This document shows positions 8,324 to 23,859 of a stretch of DNA of 24,000 nucleotides, piece after piece (the stretch's first letter is position 1; every line of letters begins with the position of its first letter). The translations under genes were made by a program, and so were the position numbers. Source of the DNA: an uncultured Thermoplasmata archaeon (lineage in GTDB: Archaea > Thermoplasmatota > Thermoplasmata > Thermoplasmatales > Aciduliprofundaceae); the NCBI GenBank assembly GCA_964630095.1, contig CAZVSZ010000001.1, positions 2,982 to 26,981 of the forward strand. The letters run 5' to 3'. The notes beneath the pieces are model-generated. The model was not told the DNA's origin and searched no databases. It saw only the letters and a program-made list of their open reading frames with translations.

Positions 8324-8665
8324 TTACAATGAGAGAACCTCATCTGGATTTTCTATCCACATTCTCACATATGAATTTATTCCAGCCAGCTCTCTTTCCA
8401 CAGGTATGTCCTGCATTGCAGAAATAAAAATAAGGGAAATTAAATGAGTTCTTGCTGGAGCTTTCCATTCCTTGCCGCCTGCACTCTTTATGCCCTCTGC
8501 AAGTGCCATTAGCTGATTCTCCACATATTCACTAATCCACCCTACCTTTGTGTAATACCTGAGAAGATTTTTAAGGCTCTCGTGATTTACTTGCTGAAGT
8601 AGGTAACTGAGCCACTTCACCGCAAGCACCTGTGTTTTCACATCATCATTTATTCTCTCCAACAT
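8324..8665 (-). CDS. flaE: archaellum accessory protein, stand-alone FlaD/FlaE (ArlD/E) domain
   Basis: 113 aa. It aligns with the C-terminal half of the 330-aa ORF at 9693-10676: WLSYLLQQVNHESLKNLLRYYTKVGWISEYVENQLMALAEG versus WIEFLFERVKRDKITLLLDYYVDIGWISREVKSEIMAYARG, and HLISLIFISAM versus HLKSLLFIMKI. This is the Arch_fla_DE-type domain. It starts 9 nt downstream of an archaellin gene. Confidence 0.7.
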   Translation of the reverse strand: MLERINDDVKTQVLAVKWLSYLLQQVNHESLKNLLRYYTKVGWISEYVENQLMALAEGIKSAGGKEWKAPARTHLISLIFISAMQDIPVERELAGINSYVRMWIENPDEVLSL

Positions 8666-8674
8666 TTTTCTCCC

Positions 8675-9541
8675 TCACAGAGAAATATACTTGGTTGTGT
8701 ATGTTGAGGGTGTGGTGAATTCTACAAGAGTGGGTGTCCCATGCTTGGGTATGAATTTTATCATTGTATCTGTTTGAGGCTCTAAATTGAGGCCTACCGC
8801 ACTGGCATTGATGTATATTCTCAAAACATCCCCTGCGGTTATCACACCATCTCTTTCCCAATTCATCGGTGGCATATCTCTTGCAATTACAGCCCCGAAA
8901 TGTTCTCCATCAAGCACCGAATAATTTGTTGCTGAGGCATTGTAAGTGAGTGTGGCGTCTGTGAATCCATCACTTATTTCAATAAGAACGCTATCTATGG
9001 CAATTGGTGGACTTCCAGCCATTAATCCAACCTTTATGTCAAGATAAGATATTGTTCTTTTGTATCCTGAGCCGTAAATTGCAGTAATCGTGGTTCCTCC
9101 TGATGGAGCTGTGGAATATTCAAGATGCACCGTTCCATTATCATATCCAACCCAACCGGATACACCAGAACCTGAAATTAACACAAGATTCCCTGTGCCA
9201 TCATCAACAAGCACATTAGTTCCATCAGTGATTCTTAATGAGTGAGGATTTATGGGGTGGTGAGACATCACATGTTCAAATACCCTTGTGCTACCGTCTC
9301 CTGTTCCTATTGTTTCTGTGTATTTCACATCTTCTCTAACTCCCTGAACCGTTATAACTTTGAATCCTGTGGAGACATCCTGCTGAGCAATCTCTCCTGT
9401 TTTCACTGCCTGCTGCTGCAGCTGGTATGCTGTCTGTATCAGCACGGTTGCGGCAACGGCAGCCACGATAATCATGGCTATGAGGATTATCAGAGTGCCT
9501 ATACCGAATTCGCCTTTTTCCTTGAAATACATTTTTCTCAT
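8675..9541 (-). CDS. flaB: archaellin (FlaB/ArlB) with ~95-aa internal insertion
   Basis: Class III signal peptide and hydrophobic helix [45 protein letters not shown]. The C-terminal archaellin core (IKVGLMAGSPPIAIDSVLIEISDG...LNLEPQTDTMIKFIPKHGTPT) is collinear with the 204-aa paralogue. An extra segment at aa ~69-163 has no counterpart there. AGGAG lies 9 nt upstream of the ATG. Confidence 0.9.
   Translation of the reverse strand: MRKMYFKEKGEFGIGTLIILIAMIIVAAVAATVLIQTAYQLQQQAVKTGEIAQQDVSTGFKVITVQGVREDVKYTETIGTGDGSTRVFEHVMSHHPINPHSLRITDGTNVLVDDGTGNLVLISGSGVSGWVGYDNGTVHLEYSTAPSGGTTITAIYGSGYKRTISYLDIKVGLMAGSPPIAIDSVLIEISDGFTDATLTYNASATNYSVLDGEHFGAVIARDMPPMNWERDGVITAGDVLRIYINASAVGLNLEPQTDTMIKFIPKHGTPTLVEFTTPSTYTTKYISL
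9406..9523 (-). repeat. 118-nt segment 94% identical to 11230-11347 (archaellin N-terminal helix coding region)
   Basis: Manual base-by-base alignment gives 111/118 identical. The flanking coding sequence of the two genes is much more diverged. Confidence 0.85.
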
Positions 9542-9580
9542 TTTTATTTCTCCTGAGAGAGGCCCGTACCCACAGGTGAT

Positions 9581-9588
9581 AATATATA
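9581..9588 (-). promoter_or_regulatory. candidate TATA box for the 288-aa archaellin gene
   Basis: The minus strand reads ACTATATATTATC about 40-50 nt upstream of the ATG at 9541. This would give a ~15-20 nt leader containing AGGAG. Confidence 0.35.
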
Positions 9589-9590
9589 GT

Positions 9591-9610
9591 TGTTCTCATA
9601 TCTGAGAACA
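9591..9610. promoter_or_regulatory. perfect 8-4-8 palindrome TGTTCTCA-TATC-TGAGAACA abutting the candidate TATA box
   Basis: Read directly: tgttctcatatctgagaaca. The arms are exact reverse complements. It lies immediately upstream (BRE side) of the TATATATT element. Confidence 0.6.
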
Positions 9611-9675
9611 ATCAATGATACTCATTGAAATTTTAAATAAGTTTTTATGTGGGTATCCAAAAAGAAACAAATCAC

Positions 9676-9692: not shown

Positions 9693-10676
9693 TTATACCC
9701 CATGGTATTCCCATAGGGATTTCTTGAACTTTTCAATCTCCTGTTCTAGGGAATTCAGAGTATCCTTATTAATCTCAATTCCTGCTATTTTCATAATGAA
9801 TAGCAGGGATTTCAGATGGTCCTCTGCACTCAGTCTCCAGTCATCTACTTTCTTGTAAATCTTGGGTGAAGGCGGCTTTATTGTTCCCTTCGGTGTTTCA
9901 ATCTCTGCTTCAATTTCCTCTTCTGGGAAATACCTTGTTACATCCTGAACTTCACCTCTCGCATATGCCATTATCTCAGATTTCACTTCTCTGCTTATCC
10001 AGCCAATGTCCACATAGTAATCCAGTAGCAAGGTAATCTTATCTCTTTTCACTCTTTCAAACAGGAACTCAATCCACCGCATAAGCAGAACTATTGTGTA
10101 GTAATCTTTTTTAATTTGGGTAAGAATTGGTGTACCAATTTTCTCTCTTTTCTCTGGCCTTGTAGGTGGTGGTTGTGCAATGGGGAGGTGAAACTCCTCT
10201 TCCACACTCTCCTTCTCTTTTTCTCCAGATTCTATATTCATAGCATTCTCTGGGATGAGTGGTTCATCCGTGGGTAATTTGGTGGGGAACTCTGAAGATT
10301 TTTCATCCATGTTTATGAATGGATTTATTTTCTGTGAAACTACCTCGTATATATCAAGCAATCTCTTTATATTGTCCTGTGATTCTTCATTGAGTTTTCG
10401 GAGCTCTGAAATCTCATTTTCCAATGAACCTATGAGTGAATCATGTCTTTCAATCTTGGACTGTAACTCATCAATTCTCCTTGATAAATCATCTATTTTT
10501 TCTGTGAGATCGTCTATTCCTGTGCCCTTGAGAGCATCACTGAGTATGTTCTGAAAATCATTTTCGTCCACTATTGTCTCTGATACCCCCTCCTGAGGGG
10601 ACTCAGTCATCTCTGATTCTTTCGTATCTTTCTTTTTTCTCGCTTTTTTCCTTTTTTTCTTAAACAACCCTGCCAT
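9693..10676 (-). CDS. flaD: archaellum accessory protein FlaC/D/E-type fusion (Lys-rich N-terminus, coiled coil, acidic linker, FlaD/E domain)
   Basis: The track ORF begins at a GTG (10685). I prefer the ATG at 10676 (MAGLFKKKRKK), preceded by AGGAGGTGA. It has coiled-coil heptads (LTEKIDDLSRRIDELQSKIERHDSLIGSLENEISELRKLNEE) and a C-terminal Arch_fla_DE-like domain (LLMRWIEFLFERV...YYVDIGWISREVKSEIMAYARG...HLKSLLFIMKIAG). Confidence 0.75.
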   Translation of the reverse strand: MAGLFKKKRKKARKKKDTKESEMTESPQEGVSETIVDENDFQNILSDALKGTGIDDLTEKIDDLSRRIDELQSKIERHDSLIGSLENEISELRKLNEESQDNIKRLLDIYEVVSQKINPFINMDEKSSEFPTKLPTDEPLIPENAMNIESGEKEKESVEEEFHLPIAQPPPTRPEKREKIGTPILTQIKKDYYTIVLLMRWIEFLFERVKRDKITLLLDYYVDIGWISREVKSEIMAYARGEVQDVTRYFPEEEIEAEIETPKGTIKPPSPKIYKKVDDWRLSAEDHLKSLLFIMKIAGIEINKDTLNSLEQEIEKFKKSLWEYHGV

Positions 10677-10716
10677 TTTTCTCACCTCCTTTGTGTTGTC
10701 AGTGGTTCATTGTTTT

Positions 10717-10750: not shown

Positions 10751-10753
10751 AGG

Positions 10754-11368
10754 TTAGTAGAGATCAACATATGTGGTTGTCAGTGTGGATGGTACCATAA
10801 ACTCCGTATAGGTTGGCACTCCATGCTTAGGTATGAGATCTAAACTCACATCTGTTTGCGGTCCAAGATTCAGTCCTGCTGTGGTGGCATTTATGAATAT
10901 CTTCACCACATCTCCAGAACTCATCACATGGTCAGTGGCCCAGTTTGAGGGAGCCATATCTCTCAAAAGGGTAGCACCAAACTCTGTTGCTCCAAGCTGG
11001 GATGCACTTGTTGCACTAGAATTGAAACTAAGTGTCACATCTGTGGTTCCATCCGTTATTTCAATGAGAACATTGTCCATATCTATTGCGGGGCTCCCAG
11101 CCACGATTCCCACTTTCATCTCTATTACCTGTATCACTGGAGTTGCGTTGGGAACATTCGTCAGGCCTCCAATATGCAATACCTTGAACCCTGTTGAGAC
11201 ATCTGCAATTGCCTCATTTCCAGTTTTCTCTGCCTGCTGCTGCAGCTGGTACGCTGTCTGTATCAGCACGGTTGCGGCAACGGCAGCCACGATAACCATG
11301 GCTATGAAGATTATCAGGGTGCCGATGCCGAACTCGCCTTTTTCCTTCTTATTCCATACCTTCTTCAT
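10754..11368 (-). CDS. flaB: archaellin (FlaB/ArlB), canonical size
   Basis: 204 aa. [46 protein letters not shown] class III signal and helix, then the archaellin beta core ([22 protein letters not shown]..., [21 protein letters not shown]). GGTGAT Shine-Dalgarno lies 5 nt before the ATG. Confidence 0.92.
11230..11347 (-). repeat. 118-nt segment 94% identical to 9406-9523
   Basis: Same manual alignment as for 9406-9523. Direct orientation, ~1.8 kb apart, flanking the flaC/D/E gene. Confidence 0.85.
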
Positions 11369-11393
11369 TTTTCATCACCTCAGGTCTCTCTTG

Positions 11394-11476: not shown

Positions 11477-11509
11477 TTTTGATTTTAGAATTTGATAATC
11501 ACATGGGAA

Positions 11510-14380
11510 TCATTTACGGTAGTAAAGATATGCAATTATTGCAACTACAGCGATAACTCCAATAACTATGTAAAGGATATTGTCCATCACAATGTTCCAA
11601 ATAGTATCCCATACACTCTTTTTAATTTCGCCAACTCTAAATTTCAAAGTTATATTTTTATTTAAATTGAATTTTGAGAAAAACATCAAGGTCAGAGAAT
11701 AAACTCCATTTCTCAGTTTATTTTTGAGCTCCATTCTTACGGTTACATTTTCTCCCGGATTTAAAATGACCACTGTCTGATTTGTGTAATTTTTACCATT
11801 GTAAGTGAATATCCAGGTGGAATTTTTTATTTGAGAAAAATGAGGTATCACAGTTATTGCATCTAAAACATTTCCAGTATTTTTAATTTGAACATCAAAG
11901 AGCACCTTCTCTTCTCCCGATATTCTTTTTACTGTCACTTGGTAATTTGGTGATGGCTTAACATCTATATTTATCGGGAGCGTGGTAAGGGTAGTATTGC
12001 CCCTAAGCACATGGAAAATTAAAGGATATGTCCCCGCCGTAATATTTAGTGGCAGGAGAAGATCAATTTCCACAGTGATATTCTCCCCTGATTTAACAAC
12101 ACCGGAAGATGGAGATATGATGGAATAATGTAGCAATGGACCAGAGACATTGAAATTATAGAAATCCATAATGTTTCCTGTATTCACAACATTTATGATA
12201 GCGGTATATTTTCCCTCACTTCCATTAAGATATGTTACTGTGGCAATGGCAGAGTGGTGAGGAGCGACCATTAGTAAAATTGAGATATTTTTTGATACAT
12301 TGCCTAACCGGGGACTAAGATGCAAATAAATAATATCCTTTGTATAAGCGGCAGTTGAATTGGGGATATATACTGTGAAATTCATATTACGCTGGGTATT
12401 TGCAGGAACTGAGACAACATCATTGTAGTTTATCAGCCAAGTTTTCGTTTCTATTATTTTTACAAGATATGTATCATTGCAATTACCTAAATTTGAAATT
12501 GTGAAATTTATAGATGCTGCTCTATTCGGGAGTGAATACACAATTGGATTATAATAAACTTGAAAATTTACAACTCTCTCCACAACTACAGTTACATTAT
12601 TCACATAATTTTTTCCAGAGGAGGAATTAACCATAAGAGTTATGTTGTAATGCCCAAAAGATAAATTCTCATACGCGTAAATTGTAATGTTGAATGTGAT
12701 TTCCTTCTGCGGTGGCAGATTTTTTATGAGAGTCTGGGGTGAAATGATAAAAAGATTCGGAGAGTAATTGAAGTGAAGGTAATATGTATCATTCCAGTTC
12801 CCATCATTAACAATACTTACACTTAAATTAGTATAATTTCCCGGACTAATTTCACATTTATTAGGGACATATACCTGAAAACTGTATTCCCTAACGAAAA
12901 CATATTCCTCTGCATAATTATTGTATTCATTGGCTTCAAACACACTATTCTGTGGATCCAGAATAAATTTAATATAATGATACCCCCCTCCCATCCTCAA
13001 GCTGAAATTGAGAATCTCCTGCGATGATAGCGATATATTTCCCTGAATAACTGTTGAGTTATCAATCATAAGGATGTAATCCACCTCCCTGCCAATATCC
13101 CAAGTGATGCCCATATTTACCGATATATTCACCGTGTTATTATTCACACTATCTATTTTTAAATATTTTACATAGAGGTCCGGAAACTTTGCAAATTTTG
13201 AGAAAATATAGGTTCCATTATCGTATTTTTCAGACCATATCACCACTAAGGAGTTGGAGTTTACTGCAATCTCCGGTTTCTCAGAACTGTTTTCGTTGAG
13301 AACTAATATTCTGTCAATTTTAACTCCAGTGCCATTATACATACCTGATTTTATTGAACCACTGGGAATGTCGTTCCATACCACAAACAACCTTCCATTT
13401 TTTTCAATAGCATTGGGAGTGATTGAGTTCACACCATCCGGAAAAGTCAGATTTCTATCATCTACAAGCGTAATTCCAGTTGTATTAAGAGAGGTGAATA
13501 TGGGTTCATAACTTTCATTTTCTCGTGAACAGGAAAATACAACATATATCCTATTATCTCCATAATCAACACTGAGCGTGCTCTTGGGAGATACAACACT
13601 AATTCTTCTTATGGGCGTAATAAAATATCCGCAACAATCAAGGCCTTTGTACATTATACTGTATCCAGGAGTGGGGGTATCATCAATCCACAGAATATGA
13701 ACATGGTTGTAATTATCAACTACAAGTTTTGGCTGGGTGGAATTGTAATGGGAGTTAGAAACCATTATTGGGGAAAAAACAGAATTGCCGTTCTGGTCAA
13801 TTTTATCGTACATAACTACCCAGTGATCATTGATAAATTCCTGCCATGCAAGATGAAGAAATCCCTGTGAATCCATACCAAAAGAGGGATTGGTACAATT
13901 ATCTCCATTATCCCGTACTGATTTCGGTGGAATTTCTATTGAAATATTTTCATTGCTGTAAAGCAAACGGGAGAAAAATATTGTCCAGTGAGTATTTAGA
14001 AATCTCTGCCATACTATAAATATTCTGGATCCACTCACTTCAATCCGTGGATTTATATCATCCCCGGAGTAGTATGTGATTCGGGAATCGTTTAGCAATT
14101 TGAAGCCCTCCTCTGTGAGCTTGGTATAATATATTTCCCAGTTACCATTTCTATAATCCTGCCACACAACATCATATGTGTTGTTTTCTCCACTTTTTAC
14201 CACGGGATTTGTGGAGTTGCCAAGCCATGTTATTCTCTTTGTGGATGACCACAAAAAGCTATCTTCAACTGCATTTTTCCCCTGAACACTATGCTCTTGC
14301 ATGTAATTTATATGGGGGTAAACTGGAAATGTTGTTATCAGTAAGGCAAGGATTATAACGCCCGCTAATACTACTCTCAT
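11510..14380 (-). CDS. large secreted, C-terminally membrane-anchored, sequon-rich surface protein (beta-propeller-like repeats, CARDB-like domain, several Ig-like repeats)
   Basis: The track ORF starts at 14479 and would overlap the upstream wHTH gene. The ATG at 14380 gives a signal-peptide-like MRVVLAGVIILALLITTFPVYP. Six W-x-D/E...W-x-I/V-aromatic repeats are present (VVWQDYRNGNWEIYYTKL, IVWQRFLNTHWTIFFSRL, LAWQEFINDHWVVMYDKI, ILWIDDTPTPGYSIMYKGL, VVWNDIPSGSIKSGMY, VIWSEKYDNGTYIFSKF). A CARDB-like end motif FEANEYNNYAEEYVFV follows. Then come ~5 repeats of the pattern ISPG..L.V.I.N.GN..DTY...F.V.I.P. The C-terminal TM is NILYIVIGVIAVVAIIAYLYYRK. I count ~42 N-x-S/T sequons by hand. Confidence 0.7.
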   Translation of the reverse strand: MRVVLAGVIILALLITTFPVYPHINYMQEHSVQGKNAVEDSFLWSSTKRITWLGNSTNPVVKSGENNTYDVVWQDYRNGNWEIYYTKLTEEGFKLLNDSRITYYSGDDINPRIEVSGSRIFIVWQRFLNTHWTIFFSRLLYSNENISIEIPPKSVRDNGDNCTNPSFGMDSQGFLHLAWQEFINDHWVVMYDKIDQNGNSVFSPIMVSNSHYNSTQPKLVVDNYNHVHILWIDDTPTPGYSIMYKGLDCCGYFITPIRRISVVSPKSTLSVDYGDNRIYVVFSCSRENESYEPIFTSLNTTGITLVDDRNLTFPDGVNSITPNAIEKNGRLFVVWNDIPSGSIKSGMYNGTGVKIDRILVLNENSSEKPEIAVNSNSLVVIWSEKYDNGTYIFSKFAKFPDLYVKYLKIDSVNNNTVNISVNMGITWDIGREVDYILMIDNSTVIQGNISLSSQEILNFSLRMGGGYHYIKFILDPQNSVFEANEYNNYAEEYVFVREYSFQVYVPNKCEISPGNYTNLSVSIVNDGNWNDTYYLHFNYSPNLFIISPQTLIKNLPPQKEITFNITIYAYENLSFGHYNITLMVNSSSGKNYVNNVTVVVERVVNFQVYYNPIVYSLPNRAASINFTISNLGNCNDTYLVKIIETKTWLINYNDVVSVPANTQRNMNFTVYIPNSTAAYTKDIIYLHLSPRLGNVSKNISILLMVAPHHSAIATVTYLNGSEGKYTAIINVVNTGNIMDFYNFNVSGPLLHYSIISPSSGVVKSGENITVEIDLLLPLNITAGTYPLIFHVLRGNTTLTTLPINIDVKPSPNYQVTVKRISGEEKVLFDVQIKNTGNVLDAITVIPHFSQIKNSTWIFTYNGKNYTNQTVVILNPGENVTVRMELKNKLRNGVYSLTLMFFSKFNLNKNITLKFRVGEIKKSVWDTIWNIVMDNILYIVIGVIAVVAIIAYLYYRK

Positions 14381-14438
14381 AATTTTTCCTGTTTTTTCAC
14401 TTCTATTTATTACTTTTTTTGTGATTATCAAAGGAGAA

Positions 14439-14756
14439 TTACAGAATTGTGGATTTCTTTTCAAGGGTATCATCCCCATTTTTCAGTATCACATGCATGG
14501 TATTTTCTTCAAAATTGAGTATTGCCCTGAAGTTTTCCATGTTAGATATGTACTTAACTCTCTTACCCTCCTTTTCCTCAGATAATAGTCCCTTTCCCAC
14601 AAGTGACTTCACGCGTCGGTAACACATAGTAACCGGTATATTGTATTCTCTGCTGAGTTCCCTTATTCCCTTCGGCTTTTCAGATGTTCCCATCAGGATT
14701 TGAAGCGTATATCTTTCCATTATTATTGACATCACTTCCTTTGCATTCATTTCCAT
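14439..14756 (-). CDS. small winged-helix (wHTH) transcriptional regulator, paralogue A
   Basis: The track start is a TTG at 14798. I prefer the ATG at 14756 (MEMNAKEV...), ~25-30 nt downstream of a TTTATAATTAAATA A/T box. The HTH core YTLQILMGTSEKPKGIRELSREYNIPVTMCYRRVKSLVGKGLL, a wing and a beta tail align with the divergent neighbour at 14919-15278. Confidence 0.7.
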   Translation of the reverse strand: MEMNAKEVMSIIMERYTLQILMGTSEKPKGIRELSREYNIPVTMCYRRVKSLVGKGLLSEEKEGKRVKYISNMENFRAILNFEENTMHVILKNGDDTLEKKSTIL

Positions 14757-14918
14757 AAGTTGGAATTGACAGCAAGGATTATTAAATTTTCGTAACAAAT
14801 TTATAATTAAATATTGATTAATTACTATCAGGGCTCAGAATCACCCAATATTACCTTGTGAGAATATATCAAATAATTATCTGTATGGAAAATGAGGACG
14901 AAAATTATTTAAGTTAAA

Positions 14919-15278
14919 ATGCCCATAAATACCACGGGGATTCAAATGGATAAAAATGCATTGGGTCTGGTATTGATGGACGATTACAATCTAAAAATCC
15001 TCGCAGCCACAGCATTGAGACCAATGAGTGTTAGAGAATTAGCCTATAAATTTGATATTCCACTGGCGAGTGCTTACAGAAAAATAAAAGAACTGGAAAG
15101 TATGGAATTAATAAAAGTGGAAGATACAAGATTGACACCGGATGGCAAGAGATACAAACTTTACAGGTCACAGGTTGAAAACTTTGAAGTTACATATCAT
15201 AGAGACAAACTGAAAATAAAATTGCACATAAAGTGGAAGGAACCTGAGATCATTGAAAAGAATATCCTCACCATATAA
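14919..15278 (+). CDS. small winged-helix (wHTH) transcriptional regulator, paralogue B
   Basis: YNLKILAATALRPMSVRELAYKFDIPLASAYRKIKELESMELI...DGKRYKLY is an ArsR/TrmB-like wHTH, collinear with paralogue A. An alternative start at 14946 (MDKNAL) is possible, ~30 nt after TTATTTAA. Confidence 0.7.
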   Translation: MPINTTGIQMDKNALGLVLMDDYNLKILAATALRPMSVRELAYKFDIPLASAYRKIKELESMELIKVEDTRLTPDGKRYKLYRSQVENFEVTYHRDKLKIKLHIKWKEPEIIEKNILTI

Positions 15279-15302: not shown

Positions 15303-16967
15303 TTAGAAAGCAAGCACCTTTCCAATGAGCCAGTTTGTTATATAGGAGGTGACTATTCCAATCCATACAAGCATTGAAAAATGCAAATAAATACTGTGTT
15401 TATGAGAACCGCTGACAATTTTTATCATCATTGAGGAGATTATTGCGTGTATAACTATTAAACTCAAAAACACAACATTTGCCGTTTGAATCGGAAATTT
15501 CGCCGCAAGTAATGGTATTTTTATATACTGCTGGAGATTCACAGGGTAGTACTTAATCATATGGGCCATCATTTTCATAAGATTCAGGGTTGTGTAAAGA
15601 GCAAATGCCATGCCCACCATAAGACCATAAAGTATGCCAGTTAGATTTGTTGCTGATTGATATCTCTTCTTCCTCAATCCCATCATTCTTATATATGCAT
15701 CACTTATTATTTTTGAAATTTTCCTTGGATTCCCACCCATCTCTATACCAGTGACGAACATATCTGTGAACTTGGAAATTAGATTGCTCCCTGTTTCGCC
15801 TGCAAAGAAATGCCATGCCTTCTTCTTATCTATTCTTGTAAGCAATCTTTTGTATAGACGATCAATATACTCTGTGAGTTTACCAAAATCATGTTTTCTC
15901 AATCTTTCCATGGCAGTCACATCACTTCCCTTTGCTTCAATATAACTGCCTACCGCCCTAATAAAAGCATCGTAGTTTCTATCACAGTTTATTAAATTAT
16001 TCTCGGCCGTATGTATTATATATCCTGGATAAAACAATGGAAGTATGGAGAGGGCAATCACTATCCCCAGATCAAGCCCAAGTGAGTAGACGACTATGAA
16101 AATAAGAAAAACGGATAAATACACAAATGGAAGACCCTTTAAAAGTTTGATTTCGTAGGGAGATCTCACATCCTTTCTGTTATGCCATATTTCATCCTCA
16201 GGTAACTTAACTTTTATGGCATAGACCATTATACCCTCCACAAAAAGAAATGCCAAGAGGGTTAGATAAAGAAATATTCTGGTATCTGTGGCTACAAACA
16301 TTGGGAGAATGGCAGCAAACACCGCAAAGAACAGCATGGAGATTATCATCGCCACAAATGTTTCCTTGTATACATCCATCTGTGATAATGAGGATTCATA
16401 TTTTATGGCATATGTCTCCACCACCACAGTTCTCTCCTTATCAAGAAATACCTCAAAATCCTCCCCTGCATCTGCACTATGTGCCAATCTATCCAGAAAA
16501 TCTGCAAGTTCAATGCTTGGAGAACGCTTGGCCACAATTCTAACTGCATCTGGTAAACTCATATTCCAGTATTCCATTAAATTGTATATCTTTTCAATTT
16601 CTTCACTCAATGCACCGTATTCCTTCACCTCAGACAGTATTCTAAATATTTCCTTTCTGGGAAGATGTGTGGATGCCAAGACAGCCATTCTCGTAATAAA
16701 AAGATGCATATATTTTTCAATCTCTATTTTTCTTCTTTCACCCCTCACCAATGGGAAAAGTAGTAAGAATAATATTCCAAATAGAGGTATCATATAAAGA
16801 ACAATATTCCACGGGAACTCTGACATGGATGGAAATACCGAGATGAGATAGTATGTGAGAATAATACTGAGAGTTATAACAGGTATCACATAGAAAAGGA
16901 TATACTTTCTCCAAGGAATATCAAACGAATGGTAAAGTCTCACTATTTTTTCTCTCATTGTAGCCAT
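15303..16967 (-). CDS. flaJ: archaellum membrane platform protein FlaJ (ArlJ), T2SS-F-like
   Basis: 554-aa polytopic membrane protein with two cytoplasmic helical domains separated by TM blocks. It starts 6 nt downstream of flaI, as in canonical fla operons. Confidence 0.88.
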   Translation of the reverse strand: MATMREKIVRLYHSFDIPWRKYILFYVIPVITLSIILTYYLISVFPSMSEFPWNIVLYMIPLFGILFLLLFPLVRGERRKIEIEKYMHLFITRMAVLASTHLPRKEIFRILSEVKEYGALSEEIEKIYNLMEYWNMSLPDAVRIVAKRSPSIELADFLDRLAHSADAGEDFEVFLDKERTVVVETYAIKYESSLSQMDVYKETFVAMIISMLFFAVFAAILPMFVATDTRIFLYLTLLAFLFVEGIMVYAIKVKLPEDEIWHNRKDVRSPYEIKLLKGLPFVYLSVFLIFIVVYSLGLDLGIVIALSILPLFYPGYIIHTAENNLINCDRNYDAFIRAVGSYIEAKGSDVTAMERLRKHDFGKLTEYIDRLYKRLLTRIDKKKAWHFFAGETGSNLISKFTDMFVTGIEMGGNPRKISKIISDAYIRMMGLRKKRYQSATNLTGILYGLMVGMAFALYTTLNLMKMMAHMIKYYPVNLQQYIKIPLLAAKFPIQTANVVFLSLIVIHAIISSMMIKIVSGSHKHSIYLHFSMLVWIGIVTSYITNWLIGKVLAF

Positions 16968-16973: not shown

Positions 16974-18611
16974 TCACACCGTAAATGGCAATTTCTCCAC
17001 TCCAAATTTCTGAAAATCCTGTATGATTTTAACCACATCCCTATATCGGAAGATATTGTGCTCTATCATTTTCCTTATAATCTTCGCCCTGAGAAACAGG
17101 TCATTGTACACTTTTCTTGGATCCGCATATCCTAAAAGTGGTGCTATTTTTTCCTCAAGAATGTAGGAGTTGTTGAGACCTCTGAAAATATGCTCATCTC
17201 TGAGGGGATCCCACACAAATACCGCCTTTGTCATAACACCACCGAGTTCCTCTGAATATCCTATTATTTCCTCAACAGAAAGAACCCTTCTCAAGCTCTT
17301 TCCCTTGAGATACACTGCTTGCTGAAATACGCCAATATTCAAATTATCCATGAAGGTAACGGGCACATTTATTGGAGGTGAACTCAATCTCTGAATCATC
17401 CTTTTTATAGAGGATGCATGGAATGTGGACATAACAGGGTGACCTGTCTGCATTGCCTGAAATGCCACATTCCCCTCTGCACCTCTTATCTCGCCAACAA
17501 TTATATAATTTGGTCTTGACCTCAACGCTGCCTTTAAAAGATCAAACATTTCAACTCTTGATTCTTTGGGACCTGATTCACGGGTAAGCAACCTCTGCCA
17601 TATCTCGTGGGGGACATGTACCTCGGGCGTGTCTTCTGCTGTGAAGACCTTGTAATTGTATCTTATGAAGGGAATTATTGAATTTAATGTTGTGGTTTTT
17701 CCACTTGCAGTTTCTCCAGCCACAAATATGCTCTTCCCATACTCTATGGTCATCCATAAGTATGCGGCAATTTCGGGCGAGAAAGTACCCCACTTCACCA
17801 GCTGTGTTACGCTGAGAGGCTCTGCAGCAAATTTTCTTATTGTAAATGACCCTCCTCTGATACTCACATCATCCGCATATATGATATTTATTCTTGAACC
17901 ATCGGGAAGTGCGCCATCCACAATAGGTCTTCCAGTGCTAACCGGTCTTCCCATTCTTTCGCTCATACCTCTGAGATACGAATCCAGTTCATCATAACTT
18001 CTGAACTGAACATTGGTTTCCAGCGTCTCAAATACTTTGTGAATTAAATGAATAGGATCAATACCTATGGTGTGGATATCCTCTATGTAAGGATCTCTGA
18101 GAAGAGGTTCCAGAGGACCACTCTCAATAATGTCTCTCTTTAAATAATACTCAATCTTATCATATTCCTCCGTTGTAACGGGCACTTTTACTTCCTTAAA
18201 AAGGGAAAAGAACGATTTTTCCTCTTCAAATGGCACAAATTCATCAGTAATCACCGTTGATTTTTTAAGCAATCTCTCTATCTGTCTCTCAAACTCTTCC
18301 TTTGTCTTGTGAGGGGGTTCATATCCTGCCTTTATGAAAATCAATTCCCTTATTTTTAGGTATTTCTTCAGTTCTTCATCGTTAAGCTGGGGCTGTATCA
18401 CAACATACTTTCTCTGAGCCATTCTGCCATATATATGGATGAATATGGGGTCACCAACAGGATATATAAGATTAACCCATTCCAGATCCCTCATATCTCT
18501 TGAAAGTTGTTCGTAAAACTCAGGCTTTTCCTTTAATTCTTTCTTGACTTTTTCAATATAGACCCCAAGATGAGGATTTCTTTTTATTGCAATATCCATT
18601 TTCATTGCCAT
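16974..18611 (-). CDS. flaI: archaellum assembly/motor ATPase FlaI (ArlI)
   Basis: 545 aa. Walker A GETASGKTT, Walker B/Asp box NYIIVGEIRGAE and His box GHPVMSTFHA are typical of the secretion ATPase superfamily (T2SS-E/VirB11-like). The N-terminal domain and gene context are FlaI-specific. Confidence 0.95.
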   Translation of the reverse strand: MAMKMDIAIKRNPHLGVYIEKVKKELKEKPEFYEQLSRDMRDLEWVNLIYPVGDPIFIHIYGRMAQRKYVVIQPQLNDEELKKYLKIRELIFIKAGYEPPHKTKEEFERQIERLLKKSTVITDEFVPFEEEKSFFSLFKEVKVPVTTEEYDKIEYYLKRDIIESGPLEPLLRDPYIEDIHTIGIDPIHLIHKVFETLETNVQFRSYDELDSYLRGMSERMGRPVSTGRPIVDGALPDGSRINIIYADDVSIRGGSFTIRKFAAEPLSVTQLVKWGTFSPEIAAYLWMTIEYGKSIFVAGETASGKTTTLNSIIPFIRYNYKVFTAEDTPEVHVPHEIWQRLLTRESGPKESRVEMFDLLKAALRSRPNYIIVGEIRGAEGNVAFQAMQTGHPVMSTFHASSIKRMIQRLSSPPINVPVTFMDNLNIGVFQQAVYLKGKSLRRVLSVEEIIGYSEELGGVMTKAVFVWDPLRDEHIFRGLNNSYILEEKIAPLLGYADPRKVYNDLFLRAKIIRKMIEHNIFRYRDVVKIIQDFQKFGVEKLPFTV

Positions 18612-18623: not shown

Positions 18624-19313
18624 CTACGAGATTGCCATTATCTCCAGAATTATTCCTGTTCCAGATTCAACCCTAAACACTATGGAATTCTCAACCCTTG
18701 CAGGAGCATTGGAGTATCTTTTTATGAATGCTACACGATTTACCATTCCACCAATTCTGTTTATTTTCGTCTCCATATAAACATGTGCTGCCGCCTTGAA
18801 AGGAGCCATCACTTCTTCTGGGATTGCATTTTTTTCCAATGTGAGTATTATTGTTCTTTCAAGTGCCAGAAGTCTTTTAAAAAAGGAGAGAAGTTGAACA
18901 GATCTTTCCTCCACCTTTAAACTTGCCTTTACCAGTGAGGATAATGTATCAATAATTATCACATCAGTTCTAAACAGAGATGGAGAGGTGATAAGTTTCC
19001 CCAAGAAATCCTTTCTGTTTCCCATTCTTCCTATGATTGGGTACACAGGCACAAAAACCAGCCTGTTTCTAAGAAGAAAGCTTGCTATGGGATAATTCAG
19101 AGAGTACATCTGATTTATAAAATCTCTCACCGTCAACTCTGTGGAGATTATGGTAACTGTATGACCATTGAGAAGTAATCCATATGCAAATCTCTGCACC
19201 AATGCGCTTTTTCCGCTTCCATTTTCACCTTCCAAAATCACAAGGGAACCATGAGGAAAACCCCCCGCCAATTTTGAATGAAGTTCATCCCTTTCTATTT
19301 TTATTCTGTACAT
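18624..19313 (-). CDS. flaH: archaellum RecA/KaiC-like ATP-binding protein FlaH (ArlH)
   Basis: 229 aa. LAGGFPHGSLVILEGENGSGKS Walker A and VIIIDTLS Walker B-like motifs. It lies between flaG and flaI. Confidence 0.85.
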   Translation of the reverse strand: MYRIKIERDELHSKLAGGFPHGSLVILEGENGSGKSALVQRFAYGLLLNGHTVTIISTELTVRDFINQMYSLNYPIASFLLRNRLVFVPVYPIIGRMGNRKDFLGKLITSPSLFRTDVIIIDTLSSLVKASLKVEERSVQLLSFFKRLLALERTIILTLEKNAIPEEVMAPFKAAAHVYMETKINRIGGMVNRVAFIKRYSNAPARVENSIVFRVESGTGIILEIMAIS

Positions 19314-19314: not shown

Positions 19315-19746
19315 TTAACTCACCGTGAAATTGAAATTCTGCGATAAACCATCTTCAAGAACAACCTTCACCACATGAGTTCCAGAGGCAAGGTCAATGT
19401 CCACAACGAGAGTTATTGTGACTCCCGGATTCCATGTAATATTCGTCCCGTCTACAACGGTGAAATTTGCCGATATACCATCAACGAGAACTGTTATGTG
19501 CTGCACGCTCAATGCTATTTTACCCGTGTTTTTCAGATAGAGAATTACAGGATTATTAGTCATCCTCTCTGGGTCATTTATTATTTTGAAATCCTCCGAT
19601 AATTGCTTGGATATTATATCTCCCCTATCCTCAATTCCATTGGATATGTTCATTATTGCCACCACAGCCACTCCAACAAAGCTCGCCGCAATTATTATGG
19701 ACGCAATAAAGAATATTATATGGGTTGCACTTGTGCTCATACCCAT
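19315..19746 (-). CDS. flaG: archaellum stator-complex protein FlaG (ArlG)
   Basis: 143 aa. N-terminal archaellin-like TM helix MGMSTSATHIIFFIASIIIAASFVGVAVV, then a beta-sandwich-like domain (PVILYLKNTGKIALSVQHITVLVDG). Position between flaF and flaH, 1-nt gap to flaH. Confidence 0.7.
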   Translation of the reverse strand: MGMSTSATHIIFFIASIIIAASFVGVAVVAIMNISNGIEDRGDIISKQLSEDFKIINDPERMTNNPVILYLKNTGKIALSVQHITVLVDGISANFTVVDGTNITWNPGVTITLVVDIDLASGTHVVKVVLEDGLSQNFNFTVS

Positions 19747-20822: not shown

Positions 20823-20823
20823 T

Positions 20824-21474
20824 TTAACTCATCTCCACATACCTCGTTGTGTAGGGAGATGGAGTCATAAGATTCTCAAGGGTAGGTACACCATGCTTTG
20901 GAATAATTTTCAGCAACAAATAACTCTGGGGAACGAGATTCAATCCGCATGCAGTGGCATTGAAAAAGAACTCCACAATATCCCCCTGCGTGATTGTTTT
21001 CTCATTCCATGTGAGCGGGCTCATGTCCCTGATTATCTTGGCTCCAAACTGTCCATTTCCGAGATGGGGATGACTCACACTTGGATCATATGTGGCTGTA
21101 GAATTAAAAACCAGATTCGTGGATATATTGCCATCATTCACTTCAATAATAATATCATTCACATTTATTGCCGGACTGCCTGCTATTGGCGAGACCTCCA
21201 CTGTTATCCAGTCAATTTTATTTCTATACGGTTCTCTAATTCCCCATGTGGTGTTGTATCTATAGCCACCAAGGGAAATTATCTTTAATCCCATAGACAC
21301 ATCTTGGATAGCTGAATTGCTTGTGCTCTCGGCCTGCTGCTGTAGACGATAGGATAACTGAATCAACACTTCGGCAGTTACTGCTGCCACAACAATCATT
21401 GCAATGAAAATTATCAGCGAACCTATGCCGAATTCTCCCTTATCTTTTTTTATTGTATTCATCCTATTCATCAC
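20824..21474 (-). CDS. flaB: archaellin (FlaB/ArlB), first gene of the flaB-F-G-H-I-J operon
   Basis: KDKG/EFGIGSLIIFIAMIVVAAVTAEVLIQLSYRLQQQA and the archaellin core ([43 protein letters not shown]). The track start is a GTG at 21474. The ATG at 21471 or at 21462 (GGTGAT 7 nt upstream) is the more likely true start. Confidence 0.9.
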   Translation of the reverse strand: MMNRMNTIKKDKGEFGIGSLIIFIAMIVVAAVTAEVLIQLSYRLQQQAESTSNSAIQDVSMGLKIISLGGYRYNTTWGIREPYRNKIDWITVEVSPIAGSPAINVNDIIIEVNDGNISTNLVFNSTATYDPSVSHPHLGNGQFGAKIIRDMSPLTWNEKTITQGDIVEFFFNATACGLNLVPQSYLLLKIIPKHGVPTLENLMTPSPYTTRYVEMS

Positions 21475-21509
21475 CTCTGATTATCACCTCCTGGAGAGGT
21501 TATTGGGAA

Positions 21510-21530
21510 GGAGAGCCACTATGGCTCTCC
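21510..21530 (-). promoter_or_regulatory. 9-bp/3-nt-loop hairpin or palindromic operator GGAGAGCCA-N3-TGGCTCTCC in the archaellin-216 leader
   Basis: Read directly (ggagagccactatggctctcc). Same core as 11394-11412. Confidence 0.6.
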
Positions 21531-21535
21531 TGAGA

Positions 21536-21579
21536 GAGGCCCGAGGTTTTAGTTATCACCTGCGGGTATACGGGACCTC
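21536..21579 (-). promoter_or_regulatory. second, imperfect leader stem (GAGGCCCG ... CGGGaCCTC, 8 bp with one bulge, 27-nt loop)
   Basis: Read directly. The loop contains a GGTGATAA Shine-Dalgarno-like sequence on the RNA strand. Confidence 0.35.
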
Positions 21580-21604
21580 CCTCAAAAATAAAAATGAATA
21601 CCAC

Positions 21605-21635
21605 TTTTAAAAATTTTTTCTTTGAGATTTATAAA
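21605..21635 (-). promoter_or_regulatory. candidate promoter region (ATTTTTAAAA and TTTATAAA boxes) for archaellin-216/flaF-J
   Basis: These are the only strong A/T octamers within 170 nt upstream of the start. Either one implies an unusually long (~110-135 nt) leader. Confidence 0.3.
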
Positions 21636-21872
21636 TTGTTAAACAAAAAAGATTATTCTCTCTGATTTTAAATATTGAAAATCAAAAGAATAAAACAGAA
21701 ATTTTTAAGATTTTATCATTTCCTAGAATATCTGACTCTACTGATTTAGTTCAATCTGTTTCTTGAGATTTTCATCGTATATCTTTATCCATGTTTTCTT
21801 TATTTTCCCCATAAAATCATATAATTTTCTAAGTGTATTTAAATGATTTCAAGTGAAAATCTTGAGATATAA

Positions 21873-22241
21873 TCATCTGTGATAATGTCTCTTGAGAAAT
21901 TTGGGGAAAGATATAAATCTCGGTTTATAATGCACCCTCTTTATTGCACCTAACCCTGCTGCTTGGATATTTTCCCTCTCCGGAACTATGCTCTCACCAG
22001 AGAGCATATCAATGCTCTTCTTTCTCTTCCCATCTATTTTTCCCTTCTTGTATGCCTTTTTTATTTCTTCAACAATTTTTAATCTCTTTGCCTCTTCAAT
22101 TATCTTTTCCATCTCCTTTTTTACCCATCCAACAGATTCATAGTGTTTGTAGTAACCCACCTCAAATCCCAGTTTATATGCTCTTTCCACAAGCGTTTTT
22201 CTTTCTACCTTCTGTGGTTTTTTTCTGAACATATTTTTCAC
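21873..22241 (-). CDS. hypothetical small, very basic Lys/Arg-rich protein, no TM segment
   Basis: 122-aa ORF starting 1 nt after the giant archaellin stop, so probably co-transcribed. Helical, charged (KKEMEKIIEEAKRLKIVEEIKKAYKKGKIDGKRKK). I recognise no family. Confidence 0.5.
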   Translation of the reverse strand: MKNMFRKKPQKVERKTLVERAYKLGFEVGYYKHYESVGWVKKEMEKIIEEAKRLKIVEEIKKAYKKGKIDGKRKKSIDMLSGESIVPERENIQAAGLGAIKRVHYKPRFISFPKFLKRHYHR

Positions 22242-22242
22242 C

Positions 22243-23859
22243 TCAGTATATCTCTACATACCTATTTAACATTATTGACGGTATATTTATGATTTTGTAT
22301 ATGGGTACCCCACTCCTCGGTAAGATTTTCATTACCAACTTTGTTTGAGGTGTCAATGTTAATCCAATTGCCCTCGCATTTATATACATTTTTATAATGG
22401 TACCCTCGTCAAGAATATAACTTTCCATGAATTCCCCCGTAGGGTCATTTATAACCTCCACACCGTAATGGGTTGAATCTGCCGCTTTTATCCCAAAACC
22501 ACTGGAATTAAGTTTCAGAGATGCATCTATCTTTCCATCCGTGAGCTCCACAATTACCGTATTGAAATCTATGGGCTGAGAGCCAGGACCCAGTGAGAGT
22601 TTAATCTGTAGAATCTGTATGGAAGACTGGGGAACAACTGGCTCACCGTACAAACTTGCATTGTTCACTGGGATCACTGCATAGTAATACATCTGATATG
22701 GCATGTAATGATAATCATCAAAACTCGTATTTGTGGTGAACCCGTACGGTTTTCTGTTGAACATTTCAGGAGTGGCAAGATTTATATAATTCAAACTCCT
22801 GTAAATATAATATCCCTTAATCCCGCTTTCATTATCAACCACTTTCTTCCATTCAAGATGAAGAGAATACTGCTCCGTTATGCCTGTAAGGCCCACAACA
22901 CTGGAGGGAGGTGTTGTATCCACAGTTTCAACACTTATATGGTCCGAAGAAGAGGAATAAATAGCAGAATTGCCGGCCCTGTCATATCCAACCACTGCAT
23001 AGTACCATATTCCCGGTTTTGAAGGGTAATCTATATAGTTTCTCACATTGCCATTCACAGTAGCTATCAGTGTTGAAGAGTTTATATTAGAGGATGTTAT
23101 GGTCTCATTTGAACGGTAAATTTTTTGATATGCGATACCACTTCCAGAATCATCTGCTGTCCAGGAAATCATCACCCCATAACCTGCCGTATCTATACTA
23201 TTCACATTACCGCTTGGTGGGGTTGTATCGGGAGTACCTGTGCCCGTGGATACCGTCTGATTTACAGCCATATAAAGTGCGGGATTTCCAGCAAAATCAT
23301 ATCCTATAATTGCGTAACCGTATATCTTATTGGACTCAACAGTGTAATCAATAAATTCACGATGATCAGTGAAATTGGAGGTTTGTATGGCAATCAATTT
23401 CCCTGTGGATTTTACAAAGTTCATATCCTGCAACACATAGGATAGAGAGGTATAATCCCCCTCCACCCTGTAAATTTCCTCCTTTGCCATCCCTGTTCCA
23501 GTATCCACCGCAGAGTTCCAAACTATTTTCACCGAGAGGGGGTTGGCACTGTTCACAGTAACATTCAAAATCAGGCCATTTTGGGGAGGGTCCCTATCTA
23601 TCTGTATGGGTGCCTTTACCCCAATCACAGATGGGTCCTTTCCGTCAATATCCCTATCACCTAAGATATTGAGTATGTTTATTGAACTCGTTATCTGGCT
23701 CACTGCATCTGAAGCAACCTTTTCTCCCTGCTCTCTCAGGGTTATACCCACATATATGATTAGGGATGATGCAATTGCTGCCACGATTATAATAGCAATG
23801 AAGAGTATCAGCGTTGCTATTCCAATATCTCCTTTTTCCTTCCCATATACTTTTTTCAT
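22243..23859 (-). CDS. giant archaellin-family protein with three FN3-like modules inserted between the N-terminal helix and the C-terminal archaellin core
   Basis: Class III signal and helix MKKVYGKEKG/DIGIATLILFIAIIIVAAIASSLIIYV. The C-terminal core is collinear with the other archaellins (IKLSLGPGSQPIDFNTVIVELTDG..., LTLTPQTKLVMKILPRSGVPI). aa ~88-412 form three modules, each with a PP-containing linker (DRDPPQ, DTTPPSG, DTTPPSS), a W strand (VKIVWNSAVDTGTG, VMISWTADDSGSG, LHLEWKKVVDNESG), Y-x-(I/V)-YR, and a Y-x-V-x-x-x-D-x-AGN-type last strand. Confidence 0.8.
   Translation of the reverse strand: MKKVYGKEKGDIGIATLILFIAIIIVAAIASSLIIYVGITLREQGEKVASDAVSQITSSINILNILGDRDIDGKDPSVIGVKAPIQIDRDPPQNGLILNVTVNSANPLSVKIVWNSAVDTGTGMAKEEIYRVEGDYTSLSYVLQDMNFVKSTGKLIAIQTSNFTDHREFIDYTVESNKIYGYAIIGYDFAGNPALYMAVNQTVSTGTGTPDTTPPSGNVNSIDTAGYGVMISWTADDSGSGIAYQKIYRSNETITSSNINSSTLIATVNGNVRNYIDYPSKPGIWYYAVVGYDRAGNSAIYSSSSDHISVETVDTTPPSSVVGLTGITEQYSLHLEWKKVVDNESGIKGYYIYRSLNYINLATPEMFNRKPYGFTTNTSFDDYHYMPYQMYYYAVIPVNNASLYGEPVVPQSSIQILQIKLSLGPGSQPIDFNTVIVELTDGKIDASLKLNSSGFGIKAADSTHYGVEVINDPTGEFMESYILDEGTIIKMYINARAIGLTLTPQTKLVMKILPRSGVPIYKIINIPSIMLNRYVEIY

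Follow-up and report, generated by a model that had tools for sequence, protein, structure and literature searches.

Positions 8324-23921 of a 24,000-nucleotide (nt) stretch of DNA from an uncultured Thermoplasmata archaeon (assembly GCA_964630095.1, contig CAZVSZ010000001.1), the whole of which we refer to as the window, hold an archaellum gene cluster. This cluster very probably encodes the entire archaellum apparatus of an archaeon from the DHVE2/Aciduliprofundum lineage, the peptidase excepted, and is composed of four conserved modules. What is newly seen is the consolidated arrangement, in which four gene blocks that are normally scattered over the chromosome stand together. The domain expansions and all of the individual parts are the norm of the lineage, being already present in public Aciduliprofundum genomes and in a census table from 2016. 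The parts that are worth follow-up are the uncharacterized domain fusions, a shared promoter box, and a leader RNA.

Four conserved modules in one cluster

We named the modules D, A, B, and C, for the four conserved gene blocks in window order. In Aciduliprofundum sp. MAR08-339 they correspond to four separate loci listed in Supplementary Table S4 of Makarova et al. 2016 (PMC4858521). Specifically, a FlaB of 539 amino acids (aa) and a 119-aa arCOG05803 protein are located at 52 kb, a 289-aa FlaB and a 114-aa FlaD at 338 kb, a series of arCOG03067, arCOG03067, 'secreted protein with PKD repeat', FlaB, and FlaC at 804 kb, and FlaB, FlaF (1071 bp), FlaG, FlaH, FlaI, and FlaJ at 1138 kb. For A. 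boonei T469, the same table records the same core, a regulator-S-layer-FlaB-FlaCDE unit, and a pair formed by FlaB-291 and FlaD-114 (PMC4858521); three of the four modules are thus listed for this genome, in which the giant archaellin was found as a protein. The spacing within module C is also similar, with FlaD-114 located 9 nt behind the archaellin in A. boonei and 11 nt behind it in MAR08-339. Module D was found in L012 (MAR08-339), L013, and L020, these and the following L numbers denoting individual loci and contigs used in the comparison. Every module examined in A. boonei, MAR08-339, and related metagenome-assembled genomes (MAGs) lay away from its window neighbors; in the window, the four modules are contiguous, on one strand and head-to-tail, in the order D-A-B-C.

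Genes were identified by listing open reading frames (ORFs) and by Pfam and NCBIfam profile searches of the window proteins. The 15 ORFs described in an earlier note on this DNA were all present at their positions (15/15, on both strands), and its gene identities and domain calls were borne out by the ORF listing, the profile searches, and structure prediction, the profiles confirming the families and structure prediction providing the FN3 and propeller folds. The order of genes, which the note had contrasted with the canonical flaB-C-D-E-F-G-H-I-J, is indeed noncanonical. Intergenic gaps in the core operon measure 1, 11, 1, 12, and 6 nt, and arlF precedes arlG, both being at the expected position in the core. 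ArlG (95 bits) and ArlF (41 bits, residues 1-111) scored below the equivalog cut-off of 110, yet each was the best match. ArlC/D/E are present, not ArlX, in that PF05377 and PF04659 exceeded their cut-offs in 9693-10685 and PF04659 did so again in 8324-8665; the stand-alone ArlD/E protein and the D/E part of the fusion protein are 28% identical. Four archaellin genes passed PF01917, and three of the four (archaellins 204, 216, and 288) also passed TIGR02537. All four archaellins (4/4) have the class III signal peptide and hydrophobic helix, with a KG / (E/D)(F/I)GI(G/A)(T/S)LI N-terminus. No prepilin/prearchaellin peptidase (ArlK/FlaK) is encoded within the window, which is expected because the peptidase is at a separate locus in Aciduliprofundum. 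The features of the cluster are collected in Table 1.

Table 1. Features of the archaellum gene cluster, in the order of modules D, A, B, and C. Positions are those of the window; wHTH, winged helix-turn-helix.
Feature	Positions	Strand	Remarks
Palindromic box, 22 bp	23900..23921		40 nt before giant-archaellin start, just upstream of TATA-like ATTATTTAAATA
Module D, gene 1, 538-aa (giant) archaellin	22243..23859	-	three FN3-like domains inserted after first beta-strand
Module D, gene 2, 122-aa basic cytoplasmic protein	21873..22241	-	net charge +19
AT-rich gap	21475-21872		398 bp, 30% GC
Palindromic box, 22 bp	21663..21684		188 nt before archaellin-216 start, upstream of TTTATAAA / TTTTTAAAA promoter elements
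Structured GC-rich 5' leader of core operon, ~115 nt	21469..21583	-	hairpin pairs Shine-Dalgarno
Module A, archaellin-216, leading gene of core operon	20824..21474	-	Pfam 2.5e-22
Module A, ArlF, 354 aa	19758..20822	-	NCBIfam ArlF matches residues 1-111 only
Module A, ArlG	19315..19746	-	NCBIfam ArlG 3e-27
Module A, ArlH, KaiC-like ATPase	18624..19313	-	NCBIfam 248 bits, cut-off 215
Module A, ArlI, motor/assembly ATPase	16974..18611	-	NCBIfam 775 bits, cut-off 550
Module A, ArlJ, membrane platform	15303..16967	-	NCBIfam 628 bits, cut-off 550
Module B, wHTH regulator HTH_b (PF12840 / arCOG03067 type)	14919..15278	+	HTH_20, 32.7 bits, cut-off 27
Module B, second wHTH regulator HTH_a (TrmB/ArsR-like)	14439..14798	-	Pfam TrmB 1.4e-5, slightly below cut-off
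Module B, putative surface glycoprotein, 989-aa ORF	11510..14479	-	weak CARDB, choice-of-anchor-T, and beta-propeller-repeat matches
Palindromic box, 22 bp	11480..11501		111 nt before archaellin-204 start, 15 nt upstream of TTTATATA
Module B, archaellin-204, minimal form without insert	10754..11368	-	Pfam 2e-29
Module B, ArlC-ArlD/E fusion, 330-aa ORF (called 327 aa)	9693..10685	-	PF05377 70-124, PF04659 185-302
Module C, archaellin-288, ~85-aa insert	8675..9541	-	split Pfam match
Module C, stand-alone ArlD/E, 113 aa	8324..8665	-	PF04659 4.6e-20; 9 nt after archaellin-288

The genes that flank the cluster at 982-8179 have housekeeping functions, not functions in motility, and encode a LURP-one-like protein, phosphoglucomutase/phosphomannomutase, DNA gyrase B, an aconitase-family protein, Trm1 tRNA methyltransferase, an NTPase (PF03266), and dihydroneopterin aldolase. 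In L002, a homolog close to the arl core was seen for the aconitase-family gene alone.

Domain-expanded proteins, module B, and the joins between modules

When the four archaellins were aligned, their inserts measured 0, 12, ~85, and ~335 residues, all at one loop after the first beta-strand. The longest belongs to the giant archaellin, in which a DUF7743 region separates the N and C parts of the Pfam Arch_flagellin match. The AlphaFold2 model of this protein (predicted local distance difference test score [pLDDT] 83, built on 22 homologs) comprised an N-terminal helix, three beta-sandwich domains, and the archaellin beta-domain. The beta-sandwiches occupy residues ~85-410, with a pLDDT > 90 over 90-410. 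Foldseek searches against the PDB returned the FN3 tandems of contactin and LAR at 1e-10, and for the core the archaellins of M. villosus and M. jannaschii (7ofq, 5ya6), so that the FN3-bearing giant archaellin that had been proposed from the sequence was confirmed. Given the position of the insertion loop, the FN3-like domains would be exposed on the filament surface. Homologs of full length formed ~29 clusters, including MAR08-339 and A. boonei; identity to the Aciduliprofundum counterpart was 68%, and the insert was conserved to the same degree as the core of the protein.

The other archaellins also have counterparts among the relatives. Archaellin-216 was 61-65% identical to the leading core-operon gene in L002, L003, L004, and L006, archaellin-204 was 67-75% identical to its counterparts in L007, L009, and L019, and those of archaellin-288 have 291 aa in A. 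boonei and 289 aa in MAR08-339. The only Pfam match to the ~85-aa insert of archaellin-288 was an insignificant one to Big_3_5 (E = 0.014). We also observed that the N-terminal coding sequences of archaellin-288 and archaellin-204 (9395-9523 and 11219-11347) were 93% identical over 129 nt, far above the rest of the two genes, which suggests recent gene conversion or strong constraint.

That the giant archaellin (perhaps with archaellin-288) is an alternative major subunit expressed under other conditions, forming a thick filament with a sheath as the Haloarcula marismortui ecoparalogs ArlA2/ArlB do, is a possibility to which we give some weight, though we consider it doubtful. The gene has its own promoter, a short leader, and its own locus in relatives, the insert matches the core in conservation, and large archaellins elsewhere co-occur with canonical ones and have been proposed to be condition-specific (PMC13357602). 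However, the same box is found at the giant and canonical archaellin promoters, which suggests co-regulation rather than alternation, and the one published observation of A. boonei archaella that we found mentions hooks (PMC10117864).

The second domain-expanded component is ArlF, in which an N-terminal helix and the ArlF beta-sandwich (1-111) are followed by a C-terminal six-bladed NHL-like beta-propeller (~121-344). Its AlphaFold2 model (pLDDT 82, built on 24 homologs) had ~24 strands beyond the beta-sandwich, and the best Foldseek match was the NHL domain of Brat (4zlr, 3.8e-10), followed by WD40 propellers; the earlier call of a propeller is hence confirmed as well. Propeller-ArlF formed 29 homolog clusters, all of 352-357 aa and with MAR08-339 included, and was 46% identical to the Aciduliprofundum counterpart. 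The closest genomes were DHVE2-group and Aciduliprofundum MAGs, in which ArlJ was 74-80% and ArlI 87-94% identical. Module A, with full-length ArlF, was kept in L002, L003, L004, L006, and MAR08-339, and L018 has the same module A unit but its contig ends within arlF, leaving the C-terminal part only. Where the DNA beyond arlJ was available, module B did not follow in L002, L003, L004, L005, L017, T469, or MAR08-339, in the last of which (L021) arlJ is followed by PolB3; in L002-L005 and L017 none of the genes downstream of arlJ in the window came next. A metagenome scan with ArlJ returned two loci only, both dispersed or uninformative.

Module B consists of two regulators, a large surface protein, archaellin-204, and the ArlC-D/E fusion. 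The product of 11510-14479 appears from its features to be a surface glycoprotein, as the earlier note had proposed. Within the 989-aa ORF the start is probably M34, giving the 956 aa that had been estimated, and the protein contains 43 N-X-S/T sequons, its hydrophobic segments being located at 30-57 and 960-989. Its parts are an N-terminal signal/transmembrane (TM) segment, approximately seven W-x-D...W-x-I-Y repeats (propeller-like), CARDB/Ig-like repeats, and a C-terminal TM anchor. Searches of PDB sequences with the glycoprotein and with HTH_b found no match, and a glycoprotein profile gave a marginal match to CARDB only. Based on tblastn, the glycoprotein was 35-39% identical over its full length to those of L007, L009, and L019, and its counterpart in Aciduliprofundum is annotated as a surface layer (S-layer) protein or a secreted PKD protein. 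Its linkage to arl genes, as for an S-layer-like protein of the arl locus, was conserved in three MAGs and two genomes. ArlC-D/E had 224 homologs, of which ~35 were 63-71% identical and all had the same fusion; identity by tblastn to L007, L009, and L019 was 66-69%.

In L007, L009, and L019 these genes form a fixed unit: a divergent HTH_20 gene, a 98-105-aa HTH gene, and genes for a 960-969-aa protein, an archaellin of ~200 aa, and ArlC-D/E. In place of arlJ, its upstream neighbors were genes for fibrillarin, a membrane protein, and an epimerase. The unit was also found in A. boonei T469 and Aciduliprofundum sp. MAR08-339, and the block of two wHTH genes and the glycoprotein gene thus makes up the first half of a conserved module, with arlB and arlC-D/E at its end. 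Separately, we noted a called ORF of 685-696 aa without a Pfam match in L007 (10885-12942, minus strand), L009 (10903-12990, minus strand), and L019 (10855-12945, minus strand), which lies on the strand opposite to arlC-D/E, shares ~126 nt with the 3' end of that gene, and is not in the window. Likewise not in the window is a 1424-aa coiled-coil protein of L007 (13929-18203, minus strand), by position and size the apparent counterpart of the Aciduliprofundum arCOG06364 gene annotated as 'Tar'.

The earlier note had read the cluster as a special decorated or adhesive variant, not a standard motility operon, in which an unrelated block of regulators and a surface protein was inserted and displaced the switch genes. 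The block between arlJ and archaellin-204 is present, at ~3.9 kb rather than ~4.3 kb. The order of genes does depart from the canonical arlB-C-D-E-F-G-H-I-J, which Oxyplasma meridianum of the Thermoplasmatales keeps (PMC12448462), adhesins commonly hold FN3 domains and propellers, and the glycoprotein has its 43 glycosylation sequons. However, the supposed insert keeps its synteny with arlB-arlC-D/E throughout the relatives, both Aciduliprofundum genomes included, and forms one unit with those genes, which does not agree with a displacement of switch genes. Furthermore, the four modules, the propeller-ArlF, and the FN3 archaellin form a lineage-wide set, shared with the cultured A. boonei, which is reported to bear archaella, and no second canonical arl set is listed for the Aciduliprofundum genomes. 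We therefore regard the adhesive variant as unlikely. The domain fusions and the block of regulators and glycoprotein stood up as conserved features of relatives, the block not as a foreign insert, and the claimed link of the regulators to the locus holds. The note had also considered relatives with the same gene order and characterized proteins; the modules are common among relatives, their order is not, and the proteins have been catalogued, not characterized.

Because no second canonical set is listed, the gene set is expected to be the motility apparatus of those genomes, and hooked archaella have been reported for A. boonei (PMC10117864). By analogy, the window would encode the normal motility apparatus of its lineage and not a special adhesive variant. 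Horizontal acquisition of the 'insert' was rejected in view of the even composition of the window (~38% GC throughout) and the conservation of its genes in relatives.

The contiguity of the four modules is supported by two assemblies, namely one ENA scaffold and Logan contigs from the same run (SRR8443420). ENA scaffold ERZ23499380 scaffold_185 (L015) covers module D together with the genes upstream of it, module A, and the beginning of B. Among the Logan contigs, L001 extends from archaellin-216 through to the glycoprotein gene, L011 includes archaellin-204, arlC-D/E, and the first 20 codons of archaellin-288, and L016 runs from archaellin-288 into the housekeeping genes; together they tile A-B, B-C, and C-downstream, and the breaks are only in repeated archaellin N-terminal coding sequence. 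An assembly artefact, in which a chimeric join was made via that repeated sequence and the true genome is dispersed as in relatives, might be suspected given that every k-mer-based Logan contig ends inside an archaellin N-terminus, that archaellin-288 and archaellin-204 have 129 nt in common at 93% identity, that the modules are dispersed in all relatives, and that contiguity comes from a single sample. It is nevertheless highly improbable: the A-B (arlJ to wHTH) and D-A junctions are without repeat and are crossed by single contigs (L001 and L015, respectively), the B-C junction (arlC-D/E, 151 nt, start of archaellin-288) lies inside Logan contig L011, the remaining N-terminal copies are only 61-70% identical, leaving the 129-nt pair as the sole long internal repeat, composition is even across the joins, and the flanking genes of relatives (PolB3, epimerase, KaiC-like ATPase) were not found at them.

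Promoter box, leader, and putative regulators

A palindromic box, TGATT-N12-AATCA (in its fuller form, TGATTTT-N8-AAAATCA), had three exact matches in the 24 kb, against 0.16 expected, and a count of three was reached in 0 of 100 shuffles. All three are upstream of archaellin promoters (giant, 216, and 204), each before a TATA-like element. When one mismatch was allowed, the count in the window was not above chance. Among the 20 loci compared, all exact matches were at corresponding promoters and distances (L009, L010, L012, L013, L014, L015, and L020). The box precedes the giant archaellin at the same distance in L012 (5939-5960), L013 (9939-9960), and L020 (9939-9960), and it precedes the archaellin-204 counterpart by 110 nt in L009 (9152-9173), with variants in L007 and L019. 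Before module A, variants with two mismatches were found at 187-193 nt in L002, L003, and L004; altogether, variants with one to two mismatches were present in L007, L019, and L002-L004. The box stands at modules that are separate in relatives and constitutes a signal linking those modules. As a candidate operator, it may define a regulon that the archaellum genes share.

Between the module A promoter and the archaellin-216 start, the core operon has a leader in which three strong helices are accompanied by a short hairpin pairing the GGAGG Shine-Dalgarno sequence. RNAalifold gave a consensus energy of -52 kcal/mol, and the minimum free energy of the single sequence was -49 kcal/mol (z = -4.0). 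A covariance model built from five sequences recovered the leader of MAR08-339, which was not in the training set (79 bits, E = 1.4e-19), and its matches were before the core-operon archaellin only, none being at other archaellin genes. The Rfam scan of the window identified no leader family and one chance-level match. Copies were located in L002 (5385-5500), L003 (258-373), L004 (3473-3586), L006 (32-148), and L021 (7241-7355). The 5' arm of the hairpin that pairs the Shine-Dalgarno sequence differs between copies (CCUCUCC, UCACCUC, AUCACCU) and is always complementary to the Shine-Dalgarno region. The 5' end of the leader is predicted near GAGGGAGG at ~21583. We additionally observed in the leader a second hairpin that is Shine-Dalgarno-like/anti-Shine-Dalgarno-like (AGGTGATA/TATCACCT); the inner hairpin is degraded in the window copy (TAAAACC, not TATCACC).

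The two wHTH genes of module B are obvious candidates for encoding the readers of the box. HTH_b, which is transcribed away from the other genes of module B and toward arlJ, is 82-84% identical to its counterparts in L007, L009, and L019, compared with 48-54% for HTH_a (both by tblastn). The two are paralogs, being 34% identical over ~82 residues. HTH_a likely starts at M15, giving 105 aa, as in the called gene. Both wHTH positions carry arCOG03067 genes in Aciduliprofundum, and the window has both the HTH_20 domain and the location beside archaellin genes, consistent with the census of Makarova et al. 2016 (PMC4858521), in which arCOG03067/pfam12840 genes often had flaB genes in their vicinity. 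NCBIfam returned weak matches of these proteins to ArsR, Csa3, and Sta1 only. Identification as EarA was considered and not assigned, as there is no adjacent methyltransferase in the window, L007, L009, or L019. Further conserved blocks are present in the divergent region between the two genes (14799-14918), here and in L007, L009, and L019, namely TTTCG-N5-6-TTTTC-N6-GATAATTA and TTTATAAAAATT...AAAAATTTAATA, which are distinct from the archaellin box and may be autoregulatory sites.

The basic protein encoded behind the giant archaellin matched no Pfam or NCBIfam family. By position and length it is the counterpart of the 119-aa arCOG05803 gene of MAR08-339, and homologs with 43-48% identity (tblastn) were located 9 nt after the giant archaellin in L012 (MAR08-339) and L013; in L020 a 115-aa gene was called at the same spacing, and the genes at this place in the three loci encode 115-129 aa. 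Its N-terminal domain (~70 aa, RAYxLGFEVGYYxHYESVGWVKKE) belongs to an unnamed family with 105 representative homologs, some of which carry a fusion to V4R, response-regulator receiver, or KaiC-ATPase domains. Proteins P0218, P0236, P0250, and P0288 were noted, with the product of window 21873-22241, as bearing on this family. The giant archaellin and basic protein of relatives are always followed by an opposite-strand pair (L012 8148-9527, L013 12138-13531, L020 12133-13506) that encodes a protein of ~220-228 aa (weak Zn_Ribbon_TF; arCOG05460 Zn-finger) and a 235-aa KaiC-like ATPase; in the window the core operon stands at this place and the pair is missing. Because of the domain fusions and the neighboring KaiC-like ATPase in relatives, we infer that the basic protein may have a regulatory or ATPase-interacting role. 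The protein was also considered as a divergent ArlD/E, with which it has a local Y..VGW(I/V) likeness, and this was rejected at an hhalign probability of 0.7%.

Proposed function and comparison with known systems

From what is known of the families, ArlI, ArlJ, and ArlH would assemble and rotate the filament, and ArlC-D/E and ArlD/E would form a cytoplasmic ring or switch, of a kind that can couple to chemotaxis. ArlG would form stator filaments with ArlF as the cap; in characterized systems ArlF caps ArlG filaments and binds the S-layer (PMC8667602; PMC12448462). The ArlF propeller could then be an enlarged envelope-binding head, possibly docked on the co-encoded glycoprotein, which may be the partner of ArlF or a local envelope adaptor as proposed in the arl loci of Methanococcales and Thermococcales. 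Archaellins 204 and 216, of canonical size, would make up the body of the filament, and archaellins 288 and 538 would be minor or alternative subunits with inserts projecting from the surface, in a hook, sheath segment, or tip. Candidate placements for the large archaellins are a hook as in A. boonei (PMC10117864) or a sheath layer like that of Haloarcula (PMC13357602). The box before the promoters of D, A, and B could define one regulon, probably read by the module B wHTH proteins, and pairing of the Shine-Dalgarno sequence by the leader would provide post-transcriptional control of the core operon.

Taken as a whole, the idea that anchoring and decoration in DHVE2 are novel, with the ArlF propeller docked on a dedicated, co-regulated glycoprotein instead of the general S-layer, the FN3 archaellin in a hook or sheath, and one box-plus-leader regulon read by the paired wHTH proteins, is tentative and of rather low probability. 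If true, the consolidated locus is a natural 'minimal cassette' for reconstituting that anchoring and decoration system. Several observations weigh against our interpretation of the cluster. The two assemblies that support contiguity are both from one sample. The Ig/CARDB content of the glycoprotein comes from sub-threshold matches, and its propeller/Ig architecture from weak matches and repeats, not from a model. The box was not found upstream of archaellin-288, upstream of arlC-D/E, or between the wHTH genes, where there are only two-mismatch variants, and only such variants are present in module A of relatives. Finally, the six close leader sequences had no double-sided covariation.

Our literature search found no paper on an FN3-domain archaellin or a beta-propeller ArlF, and no discussion of a locus-linked glycoprotein or paired regulators for this lineage. 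A 2025 comparison of ArlF in Thermoplasmatales, in which the Aciduliprofundum lineage was not covered, found no special domain (PMC12448462). Stator anchoring has been raised as a question for Thermoplasmatales, and the propeller-bearing ArlF is a concrete lead on it. The box and the leader offer testable handles on the regulation of euryarchaeal archaella. To our knowledge, the only regulators characterized there so far are EarA and CsmR. The cluster has the look of a broken-up operon, yet its modular gene set is the one that is regular for archaella in the DHVE2/Aciduliprofundum lineage; the corrected parts list for this lineage includes the ArlF-propeller fusion, the triple-FN3 archaellin, the S-layer-like glycoprotein, and the two paired regulators. 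The contiguity seen here independently supports the four dispersed Aciduliprofundum modules belonging to one system, and having the whole apparatus minus the peptidase on 15.5 kb is handy for cloning or heterologous reconstitution.

Among known regulators, EarA (Methanococcus, Pyrococcus), CsmR (Haloferax), and ArnR (Sulfolobus) are likewise small winged-helix proteins encoded beside archaellin genes, and, as for EarA, the candidate binding site described here is directly upstream of the B recognition element (BRE)/TATA. The earA gene is reported to be always adjacent to a predicted methyltransferase (PMC10117864). In contrast to these regulators, those of the window have no adjacent methyltransferase, are two divergent paralogs, and are of the PF12840/arCOG03067 type. 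The glycoprotein, in turn, resembles the S-layer-like multi-Ig proteins of Methanococcales and Thermococcales arl loci (arCOG05057), whose proposed role is local adaptation of the cell envelope around the filament (bioRxiv 10.64898/2026.04.22.720090), in being a large secreted protein with Ig-like repeats encoded within the archaellum locus. It is set apart by arCOG, the Aciduliprofundum proteins being arCOG02079 or arCOG02527, and by its N-terminal propeller-like repeats and C-terminal TM anchor.

The giant archaellin shares with ArlA2/ArlB of Haloarcula marismortui (PMC13357602; PDB 9v95, 9v96) an N-terminal helix, a core beta-domain, and an extra domain, here predicted to be surface-exposed, and in both cases large archaellins coexist with archaellins of ~200 aa. 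The D2 domain of Haloarcula was reported to have no convincing structural homolog (PMC13357602), whereas the extra part of the giant archaellin consists of three tandem FN3-like domains (~335 aa). The cluster is a member of the euryarchaeal archaellum family, whose defining components, as far as tested, are all present apart from the peptidase. Compared with the canonical Arl1 cluster (Methanococcus, Pyrococcus, Oxyplasma meridianum), it has the same families, the order of arlF, arlG, and H-I-J, and ArlC/D/E. However, arlC/D/E are located downstream of arlJ here and not between arlB and arlF, ArlC is fused to ArlD/E, ArlF has a propeller, and the archaellin genes are in four transcription units. 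The closest likeness is to Aciduliprofundum T469 and MAR08-339, in which the four modules recur with matching gene sizes (FlaF 356 aa, S-layer/secreted protein ~960 aa). None of the genes flanking those modules, which encode PolB3, a CAAX protease, a KaiC-like ATPase, and the large protein annotated as 'Tar', occurs at a join of the window, and the modules that lie near 52, 338, 804, and 1138 kb in MAR08-339 stand here as one contiguous D-A-B-C series.

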